DNA from: a plasmid
DNA: 64,000 nt
Sequence record: NZ_CP118102.1
Reading direction: 5' to 3' (one strand)
The position numbers and the translations under genes are program-made. The notes below the pieces were generated by a model that was not told where the DNA came from, made no database searches, and worked only from the letters and a program-made list of their open reading frames with translations. Of this stretch, positions 22,011-42,934 are shown one piece after another; position 1 is the first letter of the stretch; every line of letters begins with the position of its first letter.

Positions 22011-22430
22011 GTGCAGCGAGTTCAAAACAGTCGTCTGAGTCTTGAAATGCCCACCAAATCGTTTATCCATGTCTTATTCGATACGATAAAGATCGGAATT
22101 ATCAAATCCAACTTGATCGCGATGTTCGCCGGCCTGTGCATGGCTCTGTACGTAGAAGGAATCCCGTTCTTCGACAAGATCGGCACGATCGTCCTGGCCG
22201 GGATCGGATCTTTCCTCGTCATCGGTTCGGCGGGCGCGTTCAACAATTTGTACGACCGGGACATCGACGCCATTATGGACAGAACGAAGAAGCGGCCGAC
22301 CGTGACCGGATACGTCGGCACGAGGAGCGGCCTGTTCATCGCCATCTGGACCGCCGTATTCGGCCTGTTCGCCTTGTACGTTGCGTCTCCGTTGGCGGCG
22401 CTGTTCGGCTTTCTCGGCCTGTTCCTGTAG
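22011..22430 (+). pseudogene. ctaB: Protoheme IX farnesyltransferase (heme O synthase, UbiA family), truncated after about 139 codons
   Basis: IKIGIIKSNLIAMFAGLCMAL and the first Asp-rich motif NNLYDRDIDAIMDRTKKRP match CtaB/CyoE. The ORF stops at 22430 with only about 4 TM helices, and the second Asp-rich motif and C-terminal half are missing. The GC content drops immediately downstream. Confidence 0.7.
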
Positions 22431-22465
22431 GGGTACCGCCAACATTTTAACGATAATATACGCTA

Positions 22466-22502
22466 AGCCTTCGGATGTACCTGGCTTAGCGTTTTTTCTT
22501 AC
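22466..22502 (+). terminator. Rho-independent terminator-like hairpin just downstream of truncated ctaB
   Basis: ACGCTAAGCC-ttcggatgtacct-GGCTTAGCGTTTTTT. Confidence 0.55.
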
Positions 22503-22614
22503 TCTAAGCCCAATAGTCCGGGCTACACCGCCCGGACTACCGATCACTCACCTTCCTGTTGTTTCAGCGGTCGTAATGAGTTAGCGGACATCAAGTGTAT
22601 GCTTTGAAAACACC

Positions 22615-22646
22615 AAATGACCGCTAATCTTAATTAGCGGTCATTT
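22615..22646. other. Perfect palindrome (14-bp stem, 4-nt loop) at the GC-content junction
   Basis: AAATGACCGCTAAT-CTTA-ATTAGCGGTCATTT. A related half-site TTAGCGGACA lies at about 22581-22592. Confidence 0.6.
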
Positions 22647-22784
22647 AATATTAGGAGATCATTCCTTCATGATGGTTCGTAGAGACGATTTGCGCAACCG
22701 AGGAAACACTCGTGCAGCAAATGAATCGGCAACGAATCGCGCTATAGGAATCGTTTCTGCGCGATACTTCACGAAGCATATTTT

Positions 22785-23129
22785 TTATTTTAATATCAAT
22801 TCGATGATGTTGCTTGTTTTGCCACCGGATGACGAACTTTTTTGACGCATTGTCATCCTCCCTGCACCTGCCATTTCCACGAGAATTTGCCCGATGGCGT
22901 TTGTGGTATCAATCACCATGTTTTTGATTGCTTTAGGTTCCAGCGTCACCCCGTTGTCGATGGCTGTGCCATCGATCACACTTGGCAATACATTGCCGTT
23001 TGCACTGTCTTTGACGACCATGTTAATATTTTTTTCTTCGTCGCTGCCATTGTTGATCGCCACCGAAAGTGTGGTTTCTCCGTTTTTGCGAGACATCGTG
23101 AACGTGGTTTTTGAACTGTTTTCAAGCAT
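22785..23129 (-). CDS. Hypothetical small Asn/Ser/Thr-rich protein
   Basis: ATG at 23129 preceded by AAGGAGG at ideal spacing. 114 aa. Apparently co-transcribed with the upstream minus-strand gene. Confidence 0.6.
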   Translation of the reverse strand: MLENSSKTTFTMSRKNGETTLSVAINNGSDEEKNINMVVKDSANGNVLPSVIDGTAIDNGVTLEPKAIKNMVIDTTNAIGQILVEMAGAGRMTMRQKSSSSGGKTSNIIELILK

Positions 23130-23143
23130 GGGTAAACGCCTCC

Positions 23144-23512
23144 TTAAGCGATTGAATTATTTTGGTTTAACATATCAAAAATGCGCTGTTGTTTATTTTT
23201 TTCATCATCGAGCAGTTTGGAAATAATCCCTTCCAAATTCGTCGTCCCCGACGTGCCGCAGGTACAGCCGCTTGTTGATCCGCTAGAAGGCTGACAGTTA
23301 CAGCAGGTACGGCATTTGCAAAACAAAAGCAATAAGGCTAAAAGCACGGAATTGTCGCTAATTTGAATTTGATTGCCAACGGTGAAGTTGTTGCCATTGG
23401 AGACGGTGTTTGCCGAGTTGTTTGCCGAGCTCGCTAACCCGTTTGCCGTGCTCACTAAGGCGCTGTTGTAGTCAAAGGTGTTGTTGGATTCACTGGTATT
23501 CGTGGATTCCAC
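23144..23512 (-). CDS. Hypothetical small protein with N/S/T-rich N-terminus, hydrophobic stretch and Cys-rich segment
   Basis: 122-aa ORF-track entry with a GTG start. Contains VLLALLLLF followed by CKCRTCCNCQPSSGSTSGCTCGTSG. No clear RBS. Its Cys-rich segment is probably real on this strand, because the overlapping plus-strand ORF N-terminus is the antisense image. Confidence 0.4.
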   Translation of the reverse strand: MESTNTSESNNTFDYNSALVSTANGLASSANNSANTVSNGNNFTVGNQIQISDNSVLLALLLLFCKCRTCCNCQPSSGSTSGCTCGTSGTTNLEGIISKLLDDEKNKQQRIFDMLNQNNSIA

Positions 23513-24051
23513 AACACATCGAAGAGCATATAAACCACCATGGAGAGGAAGAGAACACTTTTAAACTCCCATTACCGGAACTCATTCAATTTGCAGAACT
23601 CCTTGGCAAAGAAGAAAGTGACCGGTACGTAGCCAATTTCAATAGGATGTTGAATCGTAGTTGCGATTATCTAGATTTCAGTATGGAAGGGATAGTTGTA
23701 AACGCTAGTATTCAAATTACCTTGACTGGCTTCTATGGTATTTTATCTCCCTTTCTTAAAGTGTTGTTAGAAATTAAACAAATGGTGCAGCAAGTTTTTC
23801 GTGATAGCAAGTCACAGATAACTAACAGCTCTCAGAATGTAGTTTTACTGAAGGAGCTTAATCAAAGGGTTGGATCCGTTCCTGAAGTATCCATCACTGA
23901 CAGCACAACTGTTGTGTTTGCCCAGATCATGAAGTTCCTCGGTGGGAACTCATCTGAGAGCAGTGATAACTTAACCTTCAGTGATATGAGAAACATTTTA
24001 ACCCATGTACTTGACCAGGTGACTATAAATAGGAAGGATGATGTGGCATGA
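23410..24051 (+). CDS. Hypothetical protein (true start probably internal, near 23650-23690)
   Basis: ORF-track TTG start. The first 35 or so codons are the antisense image of the minus-strand Cys-rich gene. The C-terminal two thirds is open and ends 4 nt before the next gene. No recognisable motif. Confidence 0.4.
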   Translation: MPSCLPSSLTRLPCSLRRCCSQRCCWIHWYSWIPQHIEEHINHHGEEENTFKLPLPELIQFAELLGKEESDRYVANFNRMLNRSCDYLDFSMEGIVVNASIQITLTGFYGILSPFLKVLLEIKQMVQQVFRDSKSQITNSSQNVVLLKELNQRVGSVPEVSITDSTTVVFAQIMKFLGGNSSESSDNLTFSDMRNILTHVLDQVTINRKDDVA

Positions 24052-24761
24052 GCCAGCAGCATTTAGTAGAGAAAAACAATACAGGAAATGAAATGGTTAT
24101 TCGGATCCGCGACCATTATGCACTTCCCATTGTTGAGGAGTATATTGACGGTGTTAAAGTCGGTGAAGGTATTTATACACATGAAGCGGTTGCCAGTGCT
24201 ATTCTTCAGTCTCTAGAAACTGGATTAGTACGAACACCTGTCATGCCAAGAGGTGCTCTCCATTTCGTTGAAATAACGAAGTCCCGTCAGTTTATCTTTA
24301 TGGAGGTGTCTCCTCAAAACAGGAAGGCTTATTATCACGAAGCCGTAATTGAGGAAGTTCCTTTTCCAAGATTGGTATTCGGCTTTGAAATTCATGAGCG
24401 TGATAAAAATTGGGCAATCAGTCAAGTATACCTTGCAGCTTTGGAGGACCAAATCATTCCCAGTGAGGAATCGATGGTCTTTTTTTATCCCTACACCAAC
24501 GTTAAGGAGAATTTTCAAGTTTGCTGGGGTAGTCAGCAGTTACCGGATATTGAACGGTTATCGCAGCTATCCACTTTTCCAGAACTGTTCTTTAACTCTC
24601 CAAATTCGGACTGTTACTACTATAGTTCTAATAACAGCGACATGAATTATCGCGAGCTGGTGACCAAGATTAAGGGAGAAAGATTTCCGCAAGAGTATCT
24701 TAAGGCGACTAATCTTACACTGCAGGCATGGTTCAATCGGATCGTTGGTTTTGAAGTGTAG
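24048..24761 (+). CDS. Hypothetical protein, candidate divergent E2/UBC-like fold
   Basis: 237 aa. Alternating beta-strand-like segments are followed by FFYPYTNVKENFQVCWGS, reminiscent of the E2 HPN flap plus catalytic Cys. Its position next to the JAB and E1-like genes supports this. The inference is weak. Confidence 0.35.
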   Translation: MSQQHLVEKNNTGNEMVIRIRDHYALPIVEEYIDGVKVGEGIYTHEAVASAILQSLETGLVRTPVMPRGALHFVEITKSRQFIFMEVSPQNRKAYYHEAVIEEVPFPRLVFGFEIHERDKNWAISQVYLAALEDQIIPSEESMVFFYPYTNVKENFQVCWGSQQLPDIERLSQLSTFPELFFNSPNSDCYYYSSNNSDMNYRELVTKIKGERFPQEYLKATNLTLQAWFNRIVGFEV

Positions 24762-24798
24762 AACGAGATAAATATTAGTTAAATTAGGAGGAATAAAA

Positions 24799-26199
24799 AT
24801 GTCTAACAACAATTATGGTCAAGGTGATCTATTCTCTTATTTTGGTGATGATTTCGCTGAAGCATTAGAATATGAGGAGAAGAATAAACTACAGCATACT
24901 TCTGACCAATCTATTGAAGAAGATCATAAAGATAACCCTCCATCAGAGAGTCTTACTTCTGATCCAGCAGCTGAAAAAAGTCAAGGTGAAAGCCGTCCGA
25001 CGAAGCTAATCTCACTGGAATCGCGCAGAAGAGTATCAGATTCTTTCTCTAATGATGGTTGTCCTGATGCATGTTCTGATAAAGAATTAGATGACGATGA
25101 AAAAGATGCTTTAGAGGATAAGGCAAGCGATGAACAAGAAGCGGACAAGCGTGAGCTCAGTGGGGAAAGCGGAAACACTTCTGTGATCAAATCAGATGAA
25201 AAAACACCAGTTACCGCTAAGAAGGAAATAGAAAAACCAGAACTGAATCATGCTACCTTTATTTGCTACTCAGGGCTAAGCATTTCTATAACAAAATTCT
25301 TCTCTGAGGATAAGCTAGCTGGTCTTGAGCTTGAGGATGTTCGGAAACGCCTGGAAAAAGATTACCCAGAGCTTTCAAAACAGCGGACAAAAATGGATTG
25401 GGACAAGAAGAAAAATATAATTGTGCCTATGGTCACCGGTGGAAAAAAAGGGGCCCGTTTTACAAATGGCACTCGTGGTTTTTATTCATCTTCTCAAGAA
25501 CTCATTGAGCATCAGGAGCCAATATCCTACCTTGCTGCACAAGATGGGTACTATGAAATACGAGAGAACCTGATAGGAGTATTTATAGGGAGAACGGCTG
25601 CTGAAGAGCTGATTGAATGGGAAGGATTCTCTGTATTTAATTCAGTCTTACCCAAACATCTAGATCGTGAGCCTTGCAGACCTGGATTTAAATACAAATT
25701 ACCTAAGATACCCAAGCAACTCTTTGCTCAACTGGTCTCCTTTTTTATGGACTATACAGATTACGATGTGGAGGTTATGGGTGTTTTCTACTACGATATT
25801 GATCGCCAGCAGTTTATTTTGGATGTTCCTTATCAATCTGTCACCAAATATTCAGTTAACCCTTGGTACTCTGTTTATCCCGGACATGTAGTTAAGGTCG
25901 CTGAAATCCATTCACATAACACGATGCGTGCAGATTTTAGTTCGATTGATGATGAAGATGAAGTAGGGACCATGTTATACGGAGTAGTTGGTAAGATCAA
26001 AAAAGGACATGCAACAGACGTGTTTTTTGATGTCAGGACTCGTGCAGGAATGGCAGGAAAGTTCATACCTATCGATCCCAAGGTATTTATCGAAGGAGAA
26101 TTAACGAGTAACCGGCTAAATAATCATATCGATTATGTCGCCTATCCTAAAGACTGGGTTAAAAAGGTGACAATCATAGGAGGCAATAGAAATGATTAA
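24799..26199 (+). CDS. JAB/MPN (JAMM) metalloprotease-domain protein with acidic N-terminal region and an internal ubiquitin-like segment ending in GG
   Basis: AGGAGGAA RBS. C-terminal JAMM motif E...HSHNTMRADFSSID, that is HxHx7Sx2D. Residues around 140-205, ATFICYSGLSISI...LELEDVRKRLEKDYPEL...NIIVPMVTGG, resemble a beta-grasp ending in Gly-Gly. Confidence 0.7.
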   Translation: MSNNNYGQGDLFSYFGDDFAEALEYEEKNKLQHTSDQSIEEDHKDNPPSESLTSDPAAEKSQGESRPTKLISLESRRRVSDSFSNDGCPDACSDKELDDDEKDALEDKASDEQEADKRELSGESGNTSVIKSDEKTPVTAKKEIEKPELNHATFICYSGLSISITKFFSEDKLAGLELEDVRKRLEKDYPELSKQRTKMDWDKKKNIIVPMVTGGKKGARFTNGTRGFYSSSQELIEHQEPISYLAAQDGYYEIRENLIGVFIGRTAAEELIEWEGFSVFNSVLPKHLDREPCRPGFKYKLPKIPKQLFAQLVSFFMDYTDYDVEVMGVFYYDIDRQQFILDVPYQSVTKYSVNPWYSVYPGHVVKVAEIHSHNTMRADFSSIDDEDEVGTMLYGVVGKIKKGHATDVFFDVRTRAGMAGKFIPIDPKVFIEGELTSNRLNNHIDYVAYPKDWVKKVTIIGGNRND

Positions 26200-27025
26200 T
26201 CTACTTTCACTCACTCCAAACTACACATCACTTTATTATTATATAGTCTTGATTGGTGCAGGAGGGAATGGTGGATATACGGTGCAACGTCTAACTAAGA
26301 TGATGAGTGCATTTAATAATGTTCCATCCTTTCTTATGATTGCTGATCCGGATACTGTAGAGGAAAAGAACATTCTGCGGCAGCCTTTTATCCCGTCTGA
26401 TATTGGGCTCAAGAAATCCGAGGTATTAGCTAAGCGATATGGCGGTACATATGGATTAAAGATCGGTTCTTTCTCAGATTCATATATTGAGTCGGTAGAA
26501 CAAATAGAAAAACTTTTTTCTCTGACGGATTACCGGCATAAGCCTGGACAATACATTCAAAAGGTACTTATAGGTGCTGTAGATAATGATTTTTCAAGAA
26601 ACATCATGAATGATTACTTCAATCGGACGGATGATATCATTTATATTGATGCCGGCATCGAAGGGGTTTTCATGCCAAGTGAGCAGCCACAAGATCAGTG
26701 GTCTACCGAGGAACTAAAGGACCACATGGATAGTGGCTATTCCGGTCAGATTGTTGTAGGACTAAAAAAAGACGGGAAGGAGATCTTACCGCCTCTAAAT
26801 GTGGTTTACCCTATAAATGCGGAAGATGCTATCCCTCCGTCTCACAACTGTGGGTTAGAGCCTTATCAACCACAACGGATGATCGCCAATGAATATGCTG
26901 CCATGCATATATCTACAGTTCTTAATGAGCTTTTTAGCTCAAATTCGATTCATATTCATATATCGAACTTCTCAGCAAGGAATGGTAGCTGCCGTCCTAT
27001 TTATTTTGAAGAGGTACAGGAATAG
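26192..27025 (+). CDS. E1-like ThiF/MoeB/HesA family adenylyltransferase
   Basis: Rossmann VLIGAGGNGGYTV, then the ThiF/MoeB signature ADPDTVEEKNILRQ (D.D.V..SNL.RQ). Overlaps the JAB gene by 8 nt. Confidence 0.8.
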   Translation: MINLLSLTPNYTSLYYYIVLIGAGGNGGYTVQRLTKMMSAFNNVPSFLMIADPDTVEEKNILRQPFIPSDIGLKKSEVLAKRYGGTYGLKIGSFSDSYIESVEQIEKLFSLTDYRHKPGQYIQKVLIGAVDNDFSRNIMNDYFNRTDDIIYIDAGIEGVFMPSEQPQDQWSTEELKDHMDSGYSGQIVVGLKKDGKEILPPLNVVYPINAEDAIPPSHNCGLEPYQPQRMIANEYAAMHISTVLNELFSSNSIHIHISNFSARNGSCRPIYFEEVQE

Positions 27026-27032
27026 CCGCCCA

Positions 27033-27070
27033 ATTGTCACATTTAAAAAGGGGGCATAATAATTACCCCC
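27033..27070 (+). terminator. Strong rho-independent terminator after the E1-like gene
   Basis: AAAAAGGGGGCATAATAATTACCCCCTTTTTT. Confidence 0.8.
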
Positions 27071-27095
27071 TTTTTTCTACAATGAAACACTAGGC

Positions 27096-27125
27096 AATTG
27101 ACGAATTTTGTCTTTTTTGCTATAA
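27096..27125 (+). promoter_or_regulatory. Sigma-A-like promoter candidate (TTGACG, 17 nt spacer, TATAAC) driving a roughly 270-nt leader upstream of the PP-loop gene
   Basis: The sequence reads TTGACGaattttgtcttttttgcTATAAC. The downstream leader contains small hairpins: agacaccggaggtgtct and ccgataatcgg. Confidence 0.4.
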
Positions 27126-27395
27126 CTAAAGTATTACATGAGTTATAAATTTTTCTTTATCGTTGACTATTCGATAAAGAGAGAGTTAAACCGATAATCG
27201 GCTAATAAATATTTTGGGCTTAATTTGCCATGGAGAACATAGACACCGGAGGTGTCTATTTGTGTTTCTATGGCTTTTTTTGTGCCTTACGGGAGGTCAT
27301 ACATAATTAACGAGTACAGAGATCCTTATCAAGTTAGTGATGAATTGTTGATCCCTGCAGAAGACTAGGTTGAAACGCTATGTGCCGAGCAATTT

Positions 27396-28193
27396 GTGCT
27401 TCCCACACTTCCACCAGAGATGTACGCTGTGGACCAGTATGACCACTATCATATTAACTTTTCAGGGGGTGCCGACTCACTTGCGCTCGCCTTGATTATG
27501 AAATATGGATACAAAATACCATCCGAAAAGATGGTTCTTGTCCATATGCGAGTTGATGGAAATCCGGAAGAGAAGCAGCAACTCTTTGATTGGCCGCAGA
27601 CCGATGAATACTTGCGATACGCAAGTGAAAAGCTGGATATTCCATTGGTCGTTATTTGGGGTGACAAGTCACTTGAAGAACGTATTCGAGATCGCAAAAT
27701 GTTTCCGGATAAAAGCTGCAGATTCTGCACTTCTTATACGAAGCGAGACGTTTACGCAAAGTGGGTTCGTCAGTTCGATGACTGTAAAATTCTAATGCTT
27801 ACTGGGGAACGCTCAGAAGAATCATCTGATCGAGCGAAGGAGCCAATATTTGAGTATCATCCTGCCCATGCAACTAAAAGAAAGAATCGTGAAGTGCATT
27901 GGTTCCGACCGATCAAGAATATGCTTAAATCCCAGGTTAAGCAGCTGGCCGCCAATTACAGTATTGAACTACACCCTTGTTATCAATGGGTTTCACGTTG
28001 CAGCTGTCGTTTCTGTATCTTTAATACCGCTTCGGAAATGGAGCGTGTCGCTCAGCTCTACCCTGATGATTGGGAGTACTTAAAACGTATGGAGTTACAT
28101 CTTGGCCATACCATGAAAACCAAAAGGGGTAAACCAGTCCTTCTTTCTGAATTTGTGAATGAATCTCAAGTCACCATATCAGACTTCATCTGA
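27396..28193 (+). CDS. PAPS reductase-like PP-loop ATP pyrophosphatase family protein (DndC/CysH-like superfamily)
   Basis: PP-loop INFSGGADSLAL (SGGxDS). C-terminal Cys cluster CYQWVSRCSCRFC. Start is uncertain: GTG at 27396 or ATG at 27420, neither with a strong RBS. Confidence 0.7.
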   Translation: MLPTLPPEMYAVDQYDHYHINFSGGADSLALALIMKYGYKIPSEKMVLVHMRVDGNPEEKQQLFDWPQTDEYLRYASEKLDIPLVVIWGDKSLEERIRDRKMFPDKSCRFCTSYTKRDVYAKWVRQFDDCKILMLTGERSEESSDRAKEPIFEYHPAHATKRKNREVHWFRPIKNMLKSQVKQLAANYSIELHPCYQWVSRCSCRFCIFNTASEMERVAQLYPDDWEYLKRMELHLGHTMKTKRGKPVLLSEFVNESQVTISDFI

Positions 28194-28232: not shown

Positions 28233-28613
28233 ATGCAGACAATTTTCAAAGAAAATCATAAACAACGTATGAACCCGGAGCTTATTAACCAGATGGAATC
28301 TGTAGTTAAAAGCGTTATAGTTAACGAAAAATTTCATGCAGACTTTTATTTACATGACCTTAAAGTAATGGACTCTTCCAATGGAGGAATATTTGCCTGG
28401 TATGTCTATGATTGCGGTACTCATTTAATTCAACTGAGTAATTATGATGAAGTAATCGCATTTCAAAAGGAATGGATCCAAAGCATGCCTAGCATCCGTG
28501 ATAAGCATTGGAGAGATTGTTTATATGTTTGTGATACCGCCAAAAGTGAACTCAAAATCGTTAAGAGTTTTAGCGAGGGTAACTTGGTAGAGCAGCTCAA
28601 ATTAGTCGTCTGA
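28233..28613 (+). CDS. Hypothetical protein
   Basis: 126 aa. AAGGAGG RBS. No recognisable motif. Confidence 0.55.
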   Translation: MQTIFKENHKQRMNPELINQMESVVKSVIVNEKFHADFYLHDLKVMDSSNGGIFAWYVYDCGTHLIQLSNYDEVIAFQKEWIQSMPSIRDKHWRDCLYVCDTAKSELKIVKSFSEGNLVEQLKLVV

Positions 28614-28742: not shown

Positions 28743-28988
28743 ATGTCGCAACAATTCCACAACCAAGGTTTTATTATTATGATTGAACAGGACGCAGCAG
28801 AAAAGGATTACACAGCATATATACCAGCACTTCGACTTGGAGCCAAAGGTCATACTCTTGAAGAAGTCCGTGACAATGCTCGAGACCTAATTCTTATGGA
28901 AGTCGAGGCAATGCAAAAAAGTGGAAAATCCATTCCATCTGACGACAACTGTATTGTAGAAACACTTTCAGTTTCCCTCACAGTGTAA
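28743..28988 (+). CDS. HicB-family antitoxin-like protein (UPF0150)
   Basis: 81 aa. The core YTAYIPALRLGAKGHTLEEVRDNARDLILMEVE fits the HicB antitoxin domain. GGAAGGAG RBS. No HicA-like partner is seen nearby. Confidence 0.6.
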   Translation: MSQQFHNQGFIIMIEQDAAEKDYTAYIPALRLGAKGHTLEEVRDNARDLILMEVEAMQKSGKSIPSDDNCIVETLSVSLTV

Positions 28989-29143: not shown

Positions 29144-29431
29144 ATGTTATTCGGTGATTATATACGTGAACTACGAAAAGCAAGAGAACTTACACAAGAC
29201 CAATTATCTAATTTAACAGGGATAAAAAAGCCTTATATTAGCCGTCTAGAAAATAATCACGATAATCCACCTAGCGAAGAGTTGTTGATTCGTCTTGCTG
29301 AAGCATTAGAAGTAGAAACGTATGAATTGATTCTTAAGGCCGGTAAAGTTCCAGAGGATTTCAAAAATCTTATAATTTATGATCCTGAGGTATATAGATT
29401 CCTGGTTAAAAAAATTAAACAAAGTAAATGA
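29144..29431 (+). CDS. XRE-family helix-turn-helix transcriptional regulator
   Basis: IRELRKARELTQDQLSNLTGIKKPYISRLEN is a canonical HTH_XRE. 95 aa. Confidence 0.8.
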   Translation: MLFGDYIRELRKARELTQDQLSNLTGIKKPYISRLENNHDNPPSEELLIRLAEALEVETYELILKAGKVPEDFKNLIIYDPEVYRFLVKKIKQSK

Positions 29432-29497
29432 AAAAATATATAAAAAACAACCAGATAATAAGGTGCTTTTATCTGGTTGAAACATAAGGAGGCATTT

Positions 29498-29800
29498 ATG
29501 CTGAAAAAGATAAACTTCAGAGGCTCAGATTATTTCATACATAAAATTAAATATCCGGACAATAAGAATACTTGTATCATCCTAGACCCTAATGAGCAGC
29601 TTATCAATAATGAAGATTTATACGTAGTCTCCGTTAACCTTGATTTAGGAGAACCATTTCTTGATTTTATCCCATTTGATGTTAATAAACTACCTATGTA
29701 CTTGATGTCTGATCTTATTGAAATGGAAGTATTGGCAGCCCCAACTCACCAAGTGAAGTCCGGTTTTGTTACATACCCACTTTGTAAAGTATTAATTTAA
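29498..29800 (+). CDS. Hypothetical protein
   Basis: The ATG at 29498 follows AAGGAGG. The track start at 29477 is a TTG inside the RBS region. About 100 aa with no motif. A bidirectional terminator hairpin follows: AAACAGTGATTGttacAATCACTGTTT at 29805-29835. Confidence 0.5.
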   Translation: MLKKINFRGSDYFIHKIKYPDNKNTCIILDPNEQLINNEDLYVVSVNLDLGEPFLDFIPFDVNKLPMYLMSDLIEMEVLAAPTHQVKSGFVTYPLCKVLI

Positions 29801-29965: not shown

Positions 29966-30913
29966 CTAAACTTGCTTTTTTTCTTTTGATGTTATGATGG
30001 AAGGGATCGAAGGTTTTATTTTATGCATTGCTCTTTCCTTCACCTCATCCATAACGTGAGTATATATTTGAGTTGTAGAAATGGACTCATGACCAAGAAG
30101 ATCCTGTACTGCACGAAGATCAGCCCCATTCCGTAAAAGATCCGTCGCGAATGAATGTCTAAATTTATGGGCAGATAATGACATTCCGGAAAACTGAGGA
30201 TATTCTGCTATAAGTGCATCAAAAGTTTTTTCTGCGATAGTCTGCACCATTCGCTTGCTAATACGCCTGCGAAATTGAGAAACAAAGAAAGCAGGCTCCT
30301 TGCTATTCCAGGGAGTTATTCGTTCCGTCAAGTATAACTCTAACAGTTGATTTAACTCAGCTGGAAGAGGGATATATCTCCATTTCCCCCCTTTACCTAA
30401 GACACCAATATTTGAGTTATCTTTATCATAATTAACTATATCTAATCTAACTATCTCGCTTACACGAAGTCCAGCGTACGCCATTAAAGCGACGATCGTA
30501 ATATCCCTTAATTGATGTCTTCCTTTAATGAGCTCCAGGGAGGCATCTAAAAACTGTTTTTGGAGGTAGGTAGGTTGCCTTTTCTTTTCAACTTTTGCTT
30601 TTTCAATGTCCAATGTAGGATTATGATCTATTACTCGGAATCTAACCATCACTTTATAAAATAATCGAATTGCTGACTGACACCGATTTCGGTAGCGTGC
30701 TCCTGCACCATTTTCTCTAACCTGGGTGAGATAGGTCATAATTTCAATATCCGTAACATCATTGATGGGTTTATCATCTAAACTTAGGAGAAAATGCTTT
30801 AAATCATGAAGATAAGCATTTTGGGTATCTTTCGAATATTCACGATCCTTCATATAGGAAACAAACAGCCTTACTTCTCGATCGTAACGCTCGAATATTT
30901 CTATATAACCCAT
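29966..30913 (-). CDS. Tyrosine site-specific recombinase / integrase (XerC/XerD-like)
   Basis: Catalytic-region motifs [39 protein letters not shown] (R..H..R..Y) and an N-terminal SAM-like core-binding domain. No IntI-specific insertion. Confidence 0.85.
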
Positions 30914-40999: not shown

Positions 41000-42934
41000 T
41001 TACTAGAGTAAAGGGCTGGGTAAACCAGCCCCTCCTCATCAAACCGTACGTGAGGTTTTCCCTCATACGGCTTTCCGATGTTCGTCATTCATGTGCATAC
41101 AGATTACAAAAGCGTTTTGAGTCCACATTGACTCGCCATGTTCCTCACTTCTTGGACTGCACTTTGCCACCGAGAACGTTGTCTTTTCTTTGCATACCAC
41201 TTTGCCAAACGCAGCACAATGTACCAATCTAACTTCGCCATTTTTCGTTGGCTGTAGGACGTGTGGTAGTAATTGCGCCACCCCTGAATCTTCGGATTCA
41301 GCCAACCTATGTGCTCCGCGAGTGACTTGTGTCTTTGGCTGGACGGAGCTAAGCGCTCTTTTACCACTTCCCGGATGCGTTCCTCCGCTTTACTGCACAG
41401 CCACTGCTGCGTGGTGTAGTACACTCTTCCGGAGGATGTCTCAGCTTTCGTCTTGCGATGATGCATGCCTAGAAAATCAAACCCTTCTTCTCCTGTCCAT
41501 AATCCTACGATCCGCGTTTTCGTCGGATGCAAGGTCAGTTCCAGACGCTCCATAATCGCACGTATGAGTGCATACGCCCGATCTGCATCTTTCTTCGTTT
41601 TGCATACGACAACGAAGTCATCCGCGTAACGCGTAAGTTCCCCATTTTCACTGCCATGTCGTTCCCACAGAATATCAAAATAATTCAAATAGATATTCGC
41701 TAGCAGGGGGGATATCACACCACCTTGTGGTGTACCCAGATCGGATCGCCTGATCTTTCCTTCCTCCATCACTCCCGCGTTCAGCCACTTCCTTACCAGC
41801 TTCAGGACGCGCCTGTCGCTGATTCGCATCTCTACCAGTTTCATCAGTTTCTCTTGGTTGATGTTGTCGAAGTAACCTTGGATGTCGACGTCGACCACCC
41901 AATTTCCTTTTCGGTTGCAGGCTTTTCGGATTCGGTCCAGTGCCCCTTTCGCACTTCGTTTTGGACGGAACCCAAATGAGGATTCCTGAAAGTCCGCTTC
42001 AAAGATCGGTTCCATGACCAGTTTCGCTGCCATCTGGATGACGCGGTCTCGGACGGTTGGGATGCCCAGCGGTCTTTGCTTCCCGTCTTTCTTCGGAATG
42101 TAGTGCCGGCGGACGGGCTGTGGATGGTATTTGTTTTCCTTCAAGTGTCGTTGGCATTCGTACAGGAAAAACGCTTCTCCCTTTTCCTCAATATCCGAAA
42201 ATGTTTCTCCATCGACGCCAGCCGATCCTTTGTTAGCTCGTACTCTCCGCCAGGCTTCCTCTAATACATCCATTCGATAGACCTTGTCGTACAACGCGTG
42301 GAATCTGCGCTTTTTGTTTTCCTTGGCCGCATGACCTAGTTTCTTCTGGAGTTGTTGAACGTTTTCCTTTGGTGTCGTTAGCCGTTTGGCATTCACTAAT
42401 TCGTACCTCCTAAAAAAAAACATGAACAAAGCAGGGCTCCTTCCCTCCTGCAGGTTGTGTTGTCCTGCAGTTCCTCAGTACTACGAGCCCCTCGGACTCC
42501 CTTCCTGCAAGTAGATCATTTCATCTTTTGGACTTATAGACCACTTTGTTACGGTTTCAAAAAAAAAAAAAAAAAAATCCGTGCAGGGGAGGGTCTCCCC
42601 AGTTCACTGCATCTTCTTTCATATCATGCCGATCCCCTTACGCCGGAGGATTCTTCACTGCCGCTCCAAGTTCTTAGCAGTTTCCGTGGCCTTCACCCAT
42701 TAAGCCGGGGTTCGGCTTCCCCTTGTCCCTCTTGCGAGGCCTCTTTGACGACGCGGCAGGATTCACTTGATGTTACGGCCTGAAATATTGCTCGCTCTGT
42801 CTCCGACAGATACTTTTGTCGATACGCTTCTACGCACAGTTTTCACCGTACATAGGTATCCTAGCTACACAGGGGCTTGGCCCCTCCTGTGACTGGACTT
42901 TCACCAGCTAGAAGATGCGTGCTTAGCTGGGCAC
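41000..42934 (-). mobile_element. Group II intron (bacterial class C-like) inserted into an R1 repeat copy just downstream of its terminator-like hairpin
   Basis: Minus-strand 5-prime end GTGCCCAGC... at about 42934. Domain V, AGCCGTATGAGGGAAAACCTCACGTACGGTT, lies at about 41040-41075 on the minus strand. Domain VI follows and the 3-prime end is ...CTAGTAAC at about 41000. The R1 halves flank it: ctccatttttcgttaagcgc on the 5-prime side and acgggcaggttagttt on the 3-prime side. Confidence 0.8.
41104..42396 (-). CDS. Group II intron-encoded reverse transcriptase/maturase
   Basis: RT motifs include YADDFVV and a maturase-like C-terminus. GTG start at 42396 after AGGAGGT. The track ORF extends to 42429. 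Confidence 0.85.

Follow-up and report, generated by a model that had tools for sequence, protein, structure and literature searches.

Genes of a predicted 6D/PRTRC-type ubiquitin-like protein conjugation cassette, truncated at its front end, on a Paenibacillus urinalis plasmid

We analyzed a 64,000-nucleotide stretch of a plasmid (sequence record NZ_CP118102.1), called the window here, in which plus-strand genes between 23510 and 28193 encode the parts of a predicted conjugation pathway for a ubiquitin-like protein (Ubl). These are an E2-like protein, a Ubl fused to a JAB peptidase, and a ThiF-type E1; the remnant of a further gene, which we call ORF1 (open reading frame 1), lies ahead of them, and a gene for a PP-loop protein follows. 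An earlier reading made from the letters of the window (the sequence-only reading) saw a gene set on an integrase-bearing element that it did not recognize as a described system and that might serve in defence or in thiolation. The cassette is a known kind of system, the 6D or PRTRC type, in a new Bacillota architecture; it is plasmid-borne, and the window copy is truncated.

The gene at 24799..26199 (plus strand) encodes a protein of 466 amino acids (aa) in which a beta-grasp Ubl follows a disordered acidic N-terminus and a putative JAB-N domain precedes a JAMM peptidase. In the JAB-N and JAMM metallopeptidase part (residues 219-466, 25453..26199), which was assigned from its motif, an AlphaFold model and Foldseek, E325 (25771..25773) and the JAMM motif HSHNTMRADFSSID (25909..25950; H371-S-H373-x7-S381-x2-D384) are invariant across 73 homologs. 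The model matches the deubiquitinases AMSH, Sst2, Rpn11 and the bacterial Bil deubiquitinase 8tyx, so the JAMM/MPN protease proposed by the sequence-only reading stands. In the same model, a mainly beta-stranded domain with short helices (residues 220-300), with a conserved R255, lies ahead of the JAMM core. Some homologs are named 'PRTRC genetic system protein A' by JGI.

Residues 1-140 of this protein are acidic and predicted to be disordered. The Ubl domain follows at residues 150-218 (25246..25452), overlapping the segment of about residues 135-210 in which a beta-grasp had been suspected, and it is identified by AlphaFold and comparative evidence. Residues 150-213 are modeled as strand-strand-helix-helix-strand-strand with a predicted local distance difference test score (pLDDT) of at least 88, and the score drops to less than 50 where the cut is predicted, at residues 215-217. 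When the Ubl region was modeled alone (pLDDT 80), Foldseek returned no significant match; the comparative evidence is the stronger of the two. The only invariant columns of the Ubl alignment are a K-G pair, K217-G218 (25447..25452), at which JAB is predicted to cleave and the mature Ubl to end. The Ubl region is a separate ORF directly before a separate JAB ORF in Brevibacillus, Ammoniphilus, Rossellomorea and other Paenibacillus, and these Ubls end in GTSKG plus one to five residues. A Cytobacillus Ubl ends exactly at ...AKNG and has no JAB gene beside it. A profile search of 1.84 billion representatives yielded 411 clusters, including stand-alone Ubls that end in KG plus zero to seven residues. 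From these patterns, the JAB domain probably releases the Ubl after Gly218.

Two variations on this arrangement were seen. The search of representatives returned a 291-aa protein (P0152) that consists of five head-to-tail Ubl copies, each ending in AGTKG, and is reminiscent of a polyubiquitin precursor. Also, compact versions without a JAB gene occur in Cytobacillus pN497-ZHONG (L087; L numbers denote loci of our survey), with the order E2, Ubl, ThiF, and in Thermoanaerobacterium pMU3262 (L095), with a 124-aa gene at the Ubl position. Because of these JAB-less versions and the Cytobacillus Ubl that ends at its glycine, the peptidase appears to be dispensable where C-terminal trimming is unneeded.

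The E1 gene (26192..27025, plus strand; 277 aa) is intact in the window. Its product scores 31.1 bits against the Pfam ThiF model (cut-off, 28.1) and carries GAGGNGG (26255..26275), D52xD54, R63-Q64, D131 (26582..26584) and Cys220 (26849..26851). Conservation across 73 sequences is 93-100% for the residues of the ATP site and 100% for C220, in agreement with the earlier assignment as a ThiF/MoeB-like E1. The protein has no rhodanese domain. Among the tblastn matches listed for E1, the weakest are annotated as PRTRC ThiF.

In two sister P. urinalis plasmids (L001 and L091), E1 is split at 26291-26296 by an insertion of about 13 kb with hxlA, hxlB, zwf, gnd, pgi and genes for a resolvase and a Tn3-family transposase; the matches on either side of it share 6 bp, resembling a target-site duplication. 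A reverse-transcriptase gene interrupts E1 in P. lautus (L002), and other insertions disrupt JAB in L008 and E1 in both L062 and L034.

The third enzyme, a 237-aa protein encoded at 24048..24761 (plus strand), had been put forward as a possible E2, and this is now well supported. It matches Prok-E2 family D (Pfam Prok-E2_D, PF14460) with an E-value of 2.3e-13 and 50.6 bits, above the gathering cut-off of 25, and PF14460 was present in 39 of 39 close homologs. The classical HPN histidine is absent (Y-P-Y-T-N-V). The HPN-like motif P148-Y-T-N-V152 lies at 24489..24503 and the candidate catalytic Cys159 at 24522..24524; P148, N151, V152 and C159 are kept in at least 97% of 63 homologs, C159 in 98%. 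Sequence searches found no relatives of solved structure for E2, for E1 or for the PP-loop protein. A third P. urinalis plasmid of 214,846 bp (NZ_CP118109.1, 73773-74264) encodes another, distant E2 homolog of family D (25.7% identity), and P. urinalis may therefore carry two paralogous cassettes.

To place these genes among relatives, 84 genomic loci were fetched through the JAB motif, giving with the window a survey of 85 sequences. Of these, 78 have JAB next to E1, and E2 was found in 65. In 50 IMG/VR contigs, the JAB-E1 adjacency is universal (50/50), and 42 show the order E2-JAB-E1. Three layouts can be distinguished. Clade 1 comprises Paenibacillaceae megaplasmids, the window included; its order begins with genes for a DinG/YoaA-like helicase, YdjM and LuxR, continues after an interval with a 113-aa protein, ORF1, E2, Ubl~JAB (the fusion) and E1, and ends with the PP-loop protein, a 126-aa protein and HicB. 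Clade 2, from other Bacillales, has the order 113-aa protein, ORF1, a longer E2, Ubl, JAB and E1. In clade 3, from about 60 Clostridia genomes, Ubl~JAB and E1 are followed by 2.5-6 kb that include a DUF6094 methyltransferase gene, and then by genes for proteins of about 108 and about 200 aa and E2. The DUF6094 gene stands between E1 and E2 in 53 Clostridia loci (for example, L083:13987-15375 and L073:3609-5033), and the family also adjoins a PP-loop gene in Metabacillus pB218. A tblastn search with E2 found 159 plasmids (122 from Bacillus; 110-390 kb; 156 typed as non-mobilizable) and one phage contig.

The front end of the cassette is damaged in the window. A 213-aa gene drawn there by the sequence-only reading (ORF 23410..24051) is a chimera, in which foreign sequence reads through into the 3' remnant of ORF1 (23510..24051, plus strand; residues 64-243 of a 243-aa protein). 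This was recognized from full-length homologs (L001:11811-12542 encodes the whole protein) and from a switch of identity in comparison with other plasmids, which marks a breakpoint at 23509/23510. Lost at the breakpoint are 63 codons of ORF1, the native promoter, and the gene for the 113-aa partner, which lies directly upstream of ORF1 in all relatives and is absent from the window. Because of these losses, the window copy may not work. The entire cassette is intact in P. provencensis (strain CCUG 53519, locus L003; 98% identical).

The foreign sequence at 23400..23509 recurs at 100% identity in an unrelated segment found in other plasmids, and in one of them it adjoins a Tn3-family transposase gene. 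The whole of 22430-23509 is present at 100% identity in plasmids of Brevibacillus borstelensis and of Paenibacillus sp. Cedars, in the latter beside a Tn3-family transposase. It holds two small minus-strand ORFs: 22785..23129, which occurs on 101 contigs, Paenibacillus chromosomes included, and 23144..23512, whose product contains many Cys, Gly, Ser and Thr residues (CKCRTCCNC...GCTCGTSG).

The position of ORF1 directly upstream of E2 is conserved in relatives, and its sequence diverges fast. Profile comparison with hhalign links ORF1 to the protein of about 200 aa upstream of E2 in Clostridia loci (probability 96%, E-value 2e-9) and the 113-aa protein to the Clostridia protein of about 108 aa (92%, 8e-7), and unrelated protein clusters stayed below 5%. 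Because ORF1 and the 113-aa protein are thereby tied to Clostridia genes, the system has six conserved parts across Bacilli and Clostridia. The two additional proteins, both small and evolving rapidly, may choose the substrate.

From these parts, we infer the following course of events. The JAMM domain of the 466-aa precursor would cut after Lys217-Gly218, yielding a Ubl of about 218 residues that consists of the disordered acidic arm and the beta-grasp. The ThiF-type E1 would adenylate Gly218 and take the Ubl onto Cys220, from where it would be handed to Cys159 of the family-D E2 and finally joined to a lysine of one or several targets. The JAB domain could also take the Ubl off again.

A system of this composition was predicted computationally in 2006 as the 6D operon type, whose row 6d combines a Ubl, a JAB with JAB-N, an E1, an E2 and a fast-diverging helical protein (Iyer, Burroughs and Aravind 2006, Genome Biol 7:R60); Bacillus cereus and B. 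thuringiensis are already named there. Three defining features of that type are found in the cassette: a stand-alone family-D E2, a rhodanese-less ThiF-type E1 beside JAB, and a beta-grasp Ubl with a conserved C-terminal glycine. Like the 6D and PRTRC systems, it combines a Ubl with a C-terminal Gly, a JAB whose additional N-terminal domain may correspond to JAB-N, stand-alone E1 and E2 and a diverging extra protein; E2, JAB and E1 follow one another as in the canonical PRTRC locus; and carriage is on plasmids and integrative and conjugative elements. PRTRC_A, PRTRC_B and PRTRC_ThiF are the top NCBIfam matches for the three enzymes. Taken with the Prok-E2_D match and row 6d, this removes the earlier impression of a system without precedent. 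The architecture nevertheless differs. Here the Ubl is fused to the JAB N-terminus and bears a disordered arm of about 140 residues, whereas the 6D and PRTRC Ubls are stand-alone proteins of about 75-105 aa; the Bacillota cassette has an extra conserved protein of about 110 aa; and, unlike PRTRC loci, the reference plasmids show no ParB gene in the 12 kb ahead of the cassette or in the backbone that follows it.

Genes for E1, E2, JAB and Ubl proteins are also found together in bacterial defence systems, and one alternative is that the cassette is directed against phages or plasmids in the manner of Bil or the type II cyclic oligonucleotide-based antiphage signaling system (CBASS), attaching its Ubl to invader proteins or to an effector upon infection. 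According to the literature, related operons do so. The cassette shares with Bil separate E1, E2, Ubl and JAMM deubiquitinase genes as well as the resemblance of its JAB model to 8tyx, and with CBASS Cap2/Cap3 the E1, E2 and JAB chemistry. It is carried on mobile elements, is patchy between strains, and in B. cereus has a pair of nucleotidyltransferase (NTase) and HEPN genes beside it. In PADLOC, however, E2, the JAB protein and ORF1 had no match and E1 gave only weak 'E1-E2' matches (best, 2.9e-5), and PHROGs had nothing for the four core genes. PADLOC thus shows no known defence system here, and no profile match to Bil proteins; the E2 is of family D, not family B as in Bil. Unlike CBASS, in which Cap2 is an E2-E1 fusion, the cassette has separate E1 and E2 genes and a dedicated Ubl, and no CD-NTase or effector gene was found in the window region or the reference plasmids. 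The 6E/Bub operons belong to the same 2006 classification of bacterial Ubl pathways, and multi-Ubl proteins are known in the cassette family as well (P0152), but there JAB is fused to E1 rather than to the Ubl, and the E2 family differs. Finally, the neighbors in about 140 loci are replication, recombination, repair and plasmid backbone genes rather than defence islands, and the cassette is a conserved, syntenic block of the megaplasmid backbone. We therefore consider the defence role proposed by the sequence-only reading unlikely.

The genes that do surround the cassette suggest a different role. In all clades surveyed, the neighbors are DNA-metabolism genes; those seen encode a DinG/YoaA-like helicase, YdjM, SNF2, a Y-family polymerase with YolD, DnaN, SSB, Rad52, RecA, uracil-DNA glycosylase (UDG), an SbcC/Rad50-like ATPase, a DnaG-type primase, MoxR-VWA and ArdC. 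DnaN is encoded in 16 Clostridia loci and beside the B. cereus cassette. Judged from these neighborhoods, the cassette most likely serves DNA replication, recombination or establishment of the plasmid that carries it, rather than phage defence.

A short motif in the disordered arm may be relevant to such a role. The sequence QGDLF (residues 8-12 of the 466-aa protein; 24820..24834, plus strand) fits the looser QxxLF form of the consensus QL[S/D]LF for binding to the beta sliding clamp (PMC12309361). Counterparts in relatives, at varying positions, are QLSLF, QLDLF (in Cytobacillus), QFSLF, QYSLF, QIDLF and QMDLF. The pattern Q.[SD]LF occurs in 17 of 68 locus-derived Ubl arms, compared with 0.16 in shuffled sequences. 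Among 138 representatives with at most 50% identity, it occurs in 7 (0.37 expected), Q..LF in 16 (2.6 expected) and [SD]LF in 53 (9.8 expected). With only 7 of 138 representatives carrying it, the idea of the strict motif as a family-wide feature is weakened, and we regard the clamp-binding-like motif as a lead, not a finding; we did not meet it in the literature found. One might imagine that the arm delivers the Ubl to the replisome through this motif and that the clamp of the plasmid or its host, or replication and repair proteins bound to it, then receive the Ubl, a scenario that we rate as doubtful.

The PP-loop gene (27396..28193, plus strand; PGAP start at 27420) encodes a 265-aa protein of the PAPS-reductase/DndC superfamily, as had been proposed. 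It matches PAPS_reduct (PF01507) with 37.8 bits (cut-off, 22.5) and carries SGGADS (27462..27479) and CxxC and Cx6CxCxxC motifs. Its best PADLOC match is SspD (1.6e-15), with BrxP at 1.7e-7, and in PHROGs it matches phrog_424 (8.5e-38). In this respect, it resembles element-encoded PAPS-reductase-like proteins (phrog_424, plasmid 'PAPS reductase family protein' and IbrA/YbdN-like DndC homologs), with matches to both phrog_424 and the plasmid homologs.

This gene apparently forms a transcription unit of its own, as the sequence-only reading also held. The unit of E2, Ubl~JAB and E1 ends in a terminator-like hairpin (A5-G5, 11-nt loop, C5-T6; 27045..27076, plus strand), which was read by eye, the scanner being limited to loops of 8 nt. 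A promoter-like site, TTGACG-18 nt-TATAAC, follows at 27098..27127 (plus strand), and the leader downstream of it contains a second terminator-like hairpin with a T-run (27239..27259, plus strand) that could be an attenuator. A known RNA leader was considered; Rfam assigned no family to the leader, and its sole match in the window was a group II intron elsewhere. After the PP-loop gene come genes for a 126-aa protein (28233..28613) and a HicB-like protein (28743..28988), both on the plus strand and syntenic with it in every clade-1 plasmid.

The co-occurrence of a PP-loop gene and an E1 suggested a second alternative, in which the Ubl is a sulfur carrier: E1 would form a thiocarboxylate at Gly218, which would feed the PP-loop enzyme as it thiolates DNA or another nucleic acid, in the manner of TtuABCD or Dnd. 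The components recall those of TtuABCD/Urm1 and Dnd/Ssp: an E1 and a JAMM peptidase occur with a Ubl whose last residue is Gly and with a PP-loop ATPase that has an SspD-like match, its best in the defence library. The CxxC and CxCxxC motifs could hold a metal or an Fe-S cluster, and in five lineages E1 has a PP-loop gene no more than 5 kb away, with at least two subfamilies represented. Against this stand the approximately 125 of about 140 loci that have no PP-loop gene within 9-10 kb, and the presence in most loci of an E2 with a near-invariant (98%) cysteine, which points to protein conjugation and sets the cassette apart from TtuABCD. Moreover, the PP-loop protein belongs to PF01507, not to the TtuA-type PF01171 (16 bits; cut-off, 27), and unlike its counterparts in Dnd, Ssp and Ttu, its gene is facultative and set off in the window by the terminator and its own promoter. 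No DndA/B/D/E or SspA/B/C partners were found among the ten scanned proteins or the annotated neighbors, and no cysteine desulfurase or rhodanese was seen in any surveyed neighborhood, E1 itself lacking a rhodanese domain. Metabacillus and Sutcliffiella have orthologous PP-loop genes (45% identity) but not the cassette, and homologs are present in 1668 plasmids that also lack it. For these reasons, the thiolation role suggested earlier seems quite improbable. By their defining features, neither Bil, CBASS, Bub, Dnd/Ssp nor Ttu describes the cassette.

How closely the PP-loop gene belongs to the cassette can be judged from its distribution. About 15 of about 140 loci, representing some five lineages, have a PP-loop gene within 10 kb of the cassette, and it comes directly after ThiF in Cytobacillus and Alteromonas only. 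All E1-carrying Paenibacillaceae clade-1 loci, as well as L085, have such a gene within 5 kb of E1. Within the same distance, Ammoniphilus has it on the upstream side, and B. cereus pAH820_272 has a gene for a 590-aa DndC-like PP-loop protein. The distance between E1 and the PP-loop gene is 3.8 kb in a Thermobacillus-type plasmid, where three genes on the opposite strand intervene. No PP-loop gene was found within about 9-10 kb in about 60 Clostridia loci, in any of the 50 IMG/VR loci, or in B. licheniformis, Brevibacillus, Thermoanaerobacterium and two other PRTRC loci. These surveys reject the gene as an obligate member, and the Cytobacillus, B. cereus and Alteromonas loci keep us from accepting pure coincidence. 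Thus the arrangement seen by the sequence-only reading does recur, and PP-loop genes accompany it in about five lineages, but the link is loose and does not lie in defence islands. Because it involves about 15 of about 140 loci in some five lineages, with only two directly after ThiF, the link is real as a recurrent neighborhood, and it may or may not be functional.

The PP-loop gene and the cassette could also be unrelated modules that share an early-expressed or backbone region, so that their recurrence would reflect a common habitat; we see this as an evenly balanced question. Consistent with it, PP-loop homologs are widespread in phages and in the 1668 plasmids just mentioned (1157 of them conjugative; mostly enterobacterial), and spacing and intervening genes vary, up to the upstream placement in Ammoniphilus. 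A 2026 paper describes phage PAPS reductases (DndC/SspD homologs) in anti-CRISPR-associated (anti-defence) operons and cites one that aids evasion of Dnd; related phage genes occur in anti-defence hotspots. Conversely, direct succession after ThiF in lineages as distant as Cytobacillus and Alteromonas, and the presence of different PP-loop subfamilies beside E1, amount to more than simple inheritance of one arrangement. Our reading, based on sequence comparisons, is that the PP-loop gene is a recurrent, facultative neighbor in its own transcription unit, probably an element-encoded gene of a DNA-modification or counter-defence type rather than an obligate partner. The repeated placement of such genes beside a 6D/PRTRC E1 is not mentioned in the literature found. 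On Alteromonas pAMDE1 (L096, 3370-10979), a ParB protein gene and a DndC-like PP-loop gene flank the Ubl, E2 and E1 genes. This pair presumably recalls the ParB-like and PAPS-reductase-like pairs IbrB/IbrA and YbdM/YbdN.

The setting of the cassette is a megaplasmid backbone. From 23510 on, the window is 100% identical to two P. urinalis plasmids of 190 and 206 kb, and plasmids with this type of backbone measure about 190-250 kb. Downstream lie an XRE-family helix-turn-helix regulator gene (29144..29431, plus strand), a 107-aa ORF (29477..29800, plus strand) and a gene for a XerC/D-like tyrosine recombinase (29966..30913, minus strand), the 'integrase' of the sequence-only reading. A tyrosine recombinase occupies the equivalent position in P. 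lautus pAZOPL1 and B. cereus pAH820_272. The three are backbone genes and give no evidence of an integrated element. DNA of the window had no match in 50,697 phage records. Because of the plasmid identity, the lack of phage DNA matches and the Xer-like recombinase at the same place elsewhere, the integrase-bearing element proposed earlier is better described as plasmid backbone; a prophage or integrated element is ruled out by these matches and by exact protein look-ups, which assign even the high-GC part to P. urinalis.

That part covers bases 1 to about 22,000 (63% G+C), and the remainder (22400-64000) has about 38-40%, so the window is a mosaic. Exact look-ups trace proteins of both parts to P. 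urinalis entries on a 227,239-bp contig, and the high-GC proteins (an ABC transporter ATPase, an LLM monooxygenase, an MFS transporter and TetR) have near-identical copies in Cohnella sp. CIP 111063. From the P. urinalis records and these homologs, we take this part to be a Cohnella-like block of about 22 kb inside a low-GC Paenibacillus plasmid. An assembly chimera is not needed to explain the jump, as the high-GC proteins are recorded for the 227-kb P. urinalis contig. At the junction, 22011-22430 holds a 139-aa ORF of intermediate G+C with hydrophobic segments, which looks like a fragment of a membrane protein. The region from 31 to 64 kb is plasmid cargo, with insertion sequence elements, copper and heavy-metal resistance genes, and a group II intron (Rfam RF02003 and RF00029; 41002-42910) with its reverse-transcriptase ORF (41104..42429).

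Taken together, we hold with moderate confidence that the locus is a Bacillota Ubl conjugation cassette of the 6D/PRTRC type in a Paenibacillaceae megaplasmid backbone, with a likely role in plasmid DNA metabolism and with the PP-loop gene as a separate neighbor. Several observations weigh against this interpretation. The three enzymes score far below the curated NCBIfam cut-offs (PRTRC_A, 22.6 of 101.8 bits; PRTRC_B, 55.7 of 131.45, 4.4e-15; PRTRC_ThiF, 68.2 of 144.75, 6.8e-19) and are not equivalog members. The E2s of the 6D type are described as missing the classical HPN histidine and as having an absolutely conserved histidine downstream of the cysteine (Iyer et al. 2006), whereas the window E2 has no histidine after C159, and among 63 sequences no histidine in that region reaches 90% conservation, although some relatives have one. 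The Ubl and ORF1 have no detectable similarity to the PRTRC Ubl and helical protein: hhalign found none between the Ubl and that of the canonical PRTRC locus or between ORF1 and its Manganitrophus (PRTRC) counterpart, comparisons with single target sequences that have low sensitivity, and isolated Ubl segments and the upstream proteins matched no NCBIfam model, PRTRC_C, PRTRC_E and PRTRC_F included. Self-cleavage of the fusion is deduced solely from split-gene relatives. For the steps of the cascade, a literature search found no experimental study of any 6D/PRTRC member. The case for a role in plasmid DNA metabolism is drawn entirely from gene neighborhood, and the cassette is dispensable at least in P. 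urinalis, given the truncated window copy and the E1 split in two sister plasmids. Last, the PP-loop gene begins 14 bp after ThiF in Cytobacillus, and in the canonical PRTRC locus of Alteromonas pAMDE1, a gene for a 593-aa DndC-like protein begins 463 bp after ThiF, with a second DndC-like copy 5 kb further on. Because PP-loop genes recur in this way beside ThiF in five lineages, a functional tie should not be dismissed.

For the 6D/PRTRC type, this analysis supplies an anatomy in Bacillota: a Ubl~JAB precursor with a predicted cut site at Lys217-Gly218, candidate E1 and E2 cysteines (Cys220 and Cys159), and two further conserved partner proteins, as well as intact reference copies such as those of P. 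provencensis and the Cytobacillus plasmid. DndC/SspD-like PP-loop genes beside E1, facultative but repeated, in Bacillota and in a gammaproteobacterial PRTRC locus are a lead. The expected biology shifts from phage defence to plasmid DNA replication, recombination or establishment. If the Ubl were indeed delivered to the clamp, the cassette would parallel PCNA ubiquitination and SUMOylation in a bacterial setting, and megaplasmids would control replication, damage tolerance or establishment by it, and the DndC/SspD-like PP-loop enzyme would be a co-operating, DNA-directed partner in some lineages.

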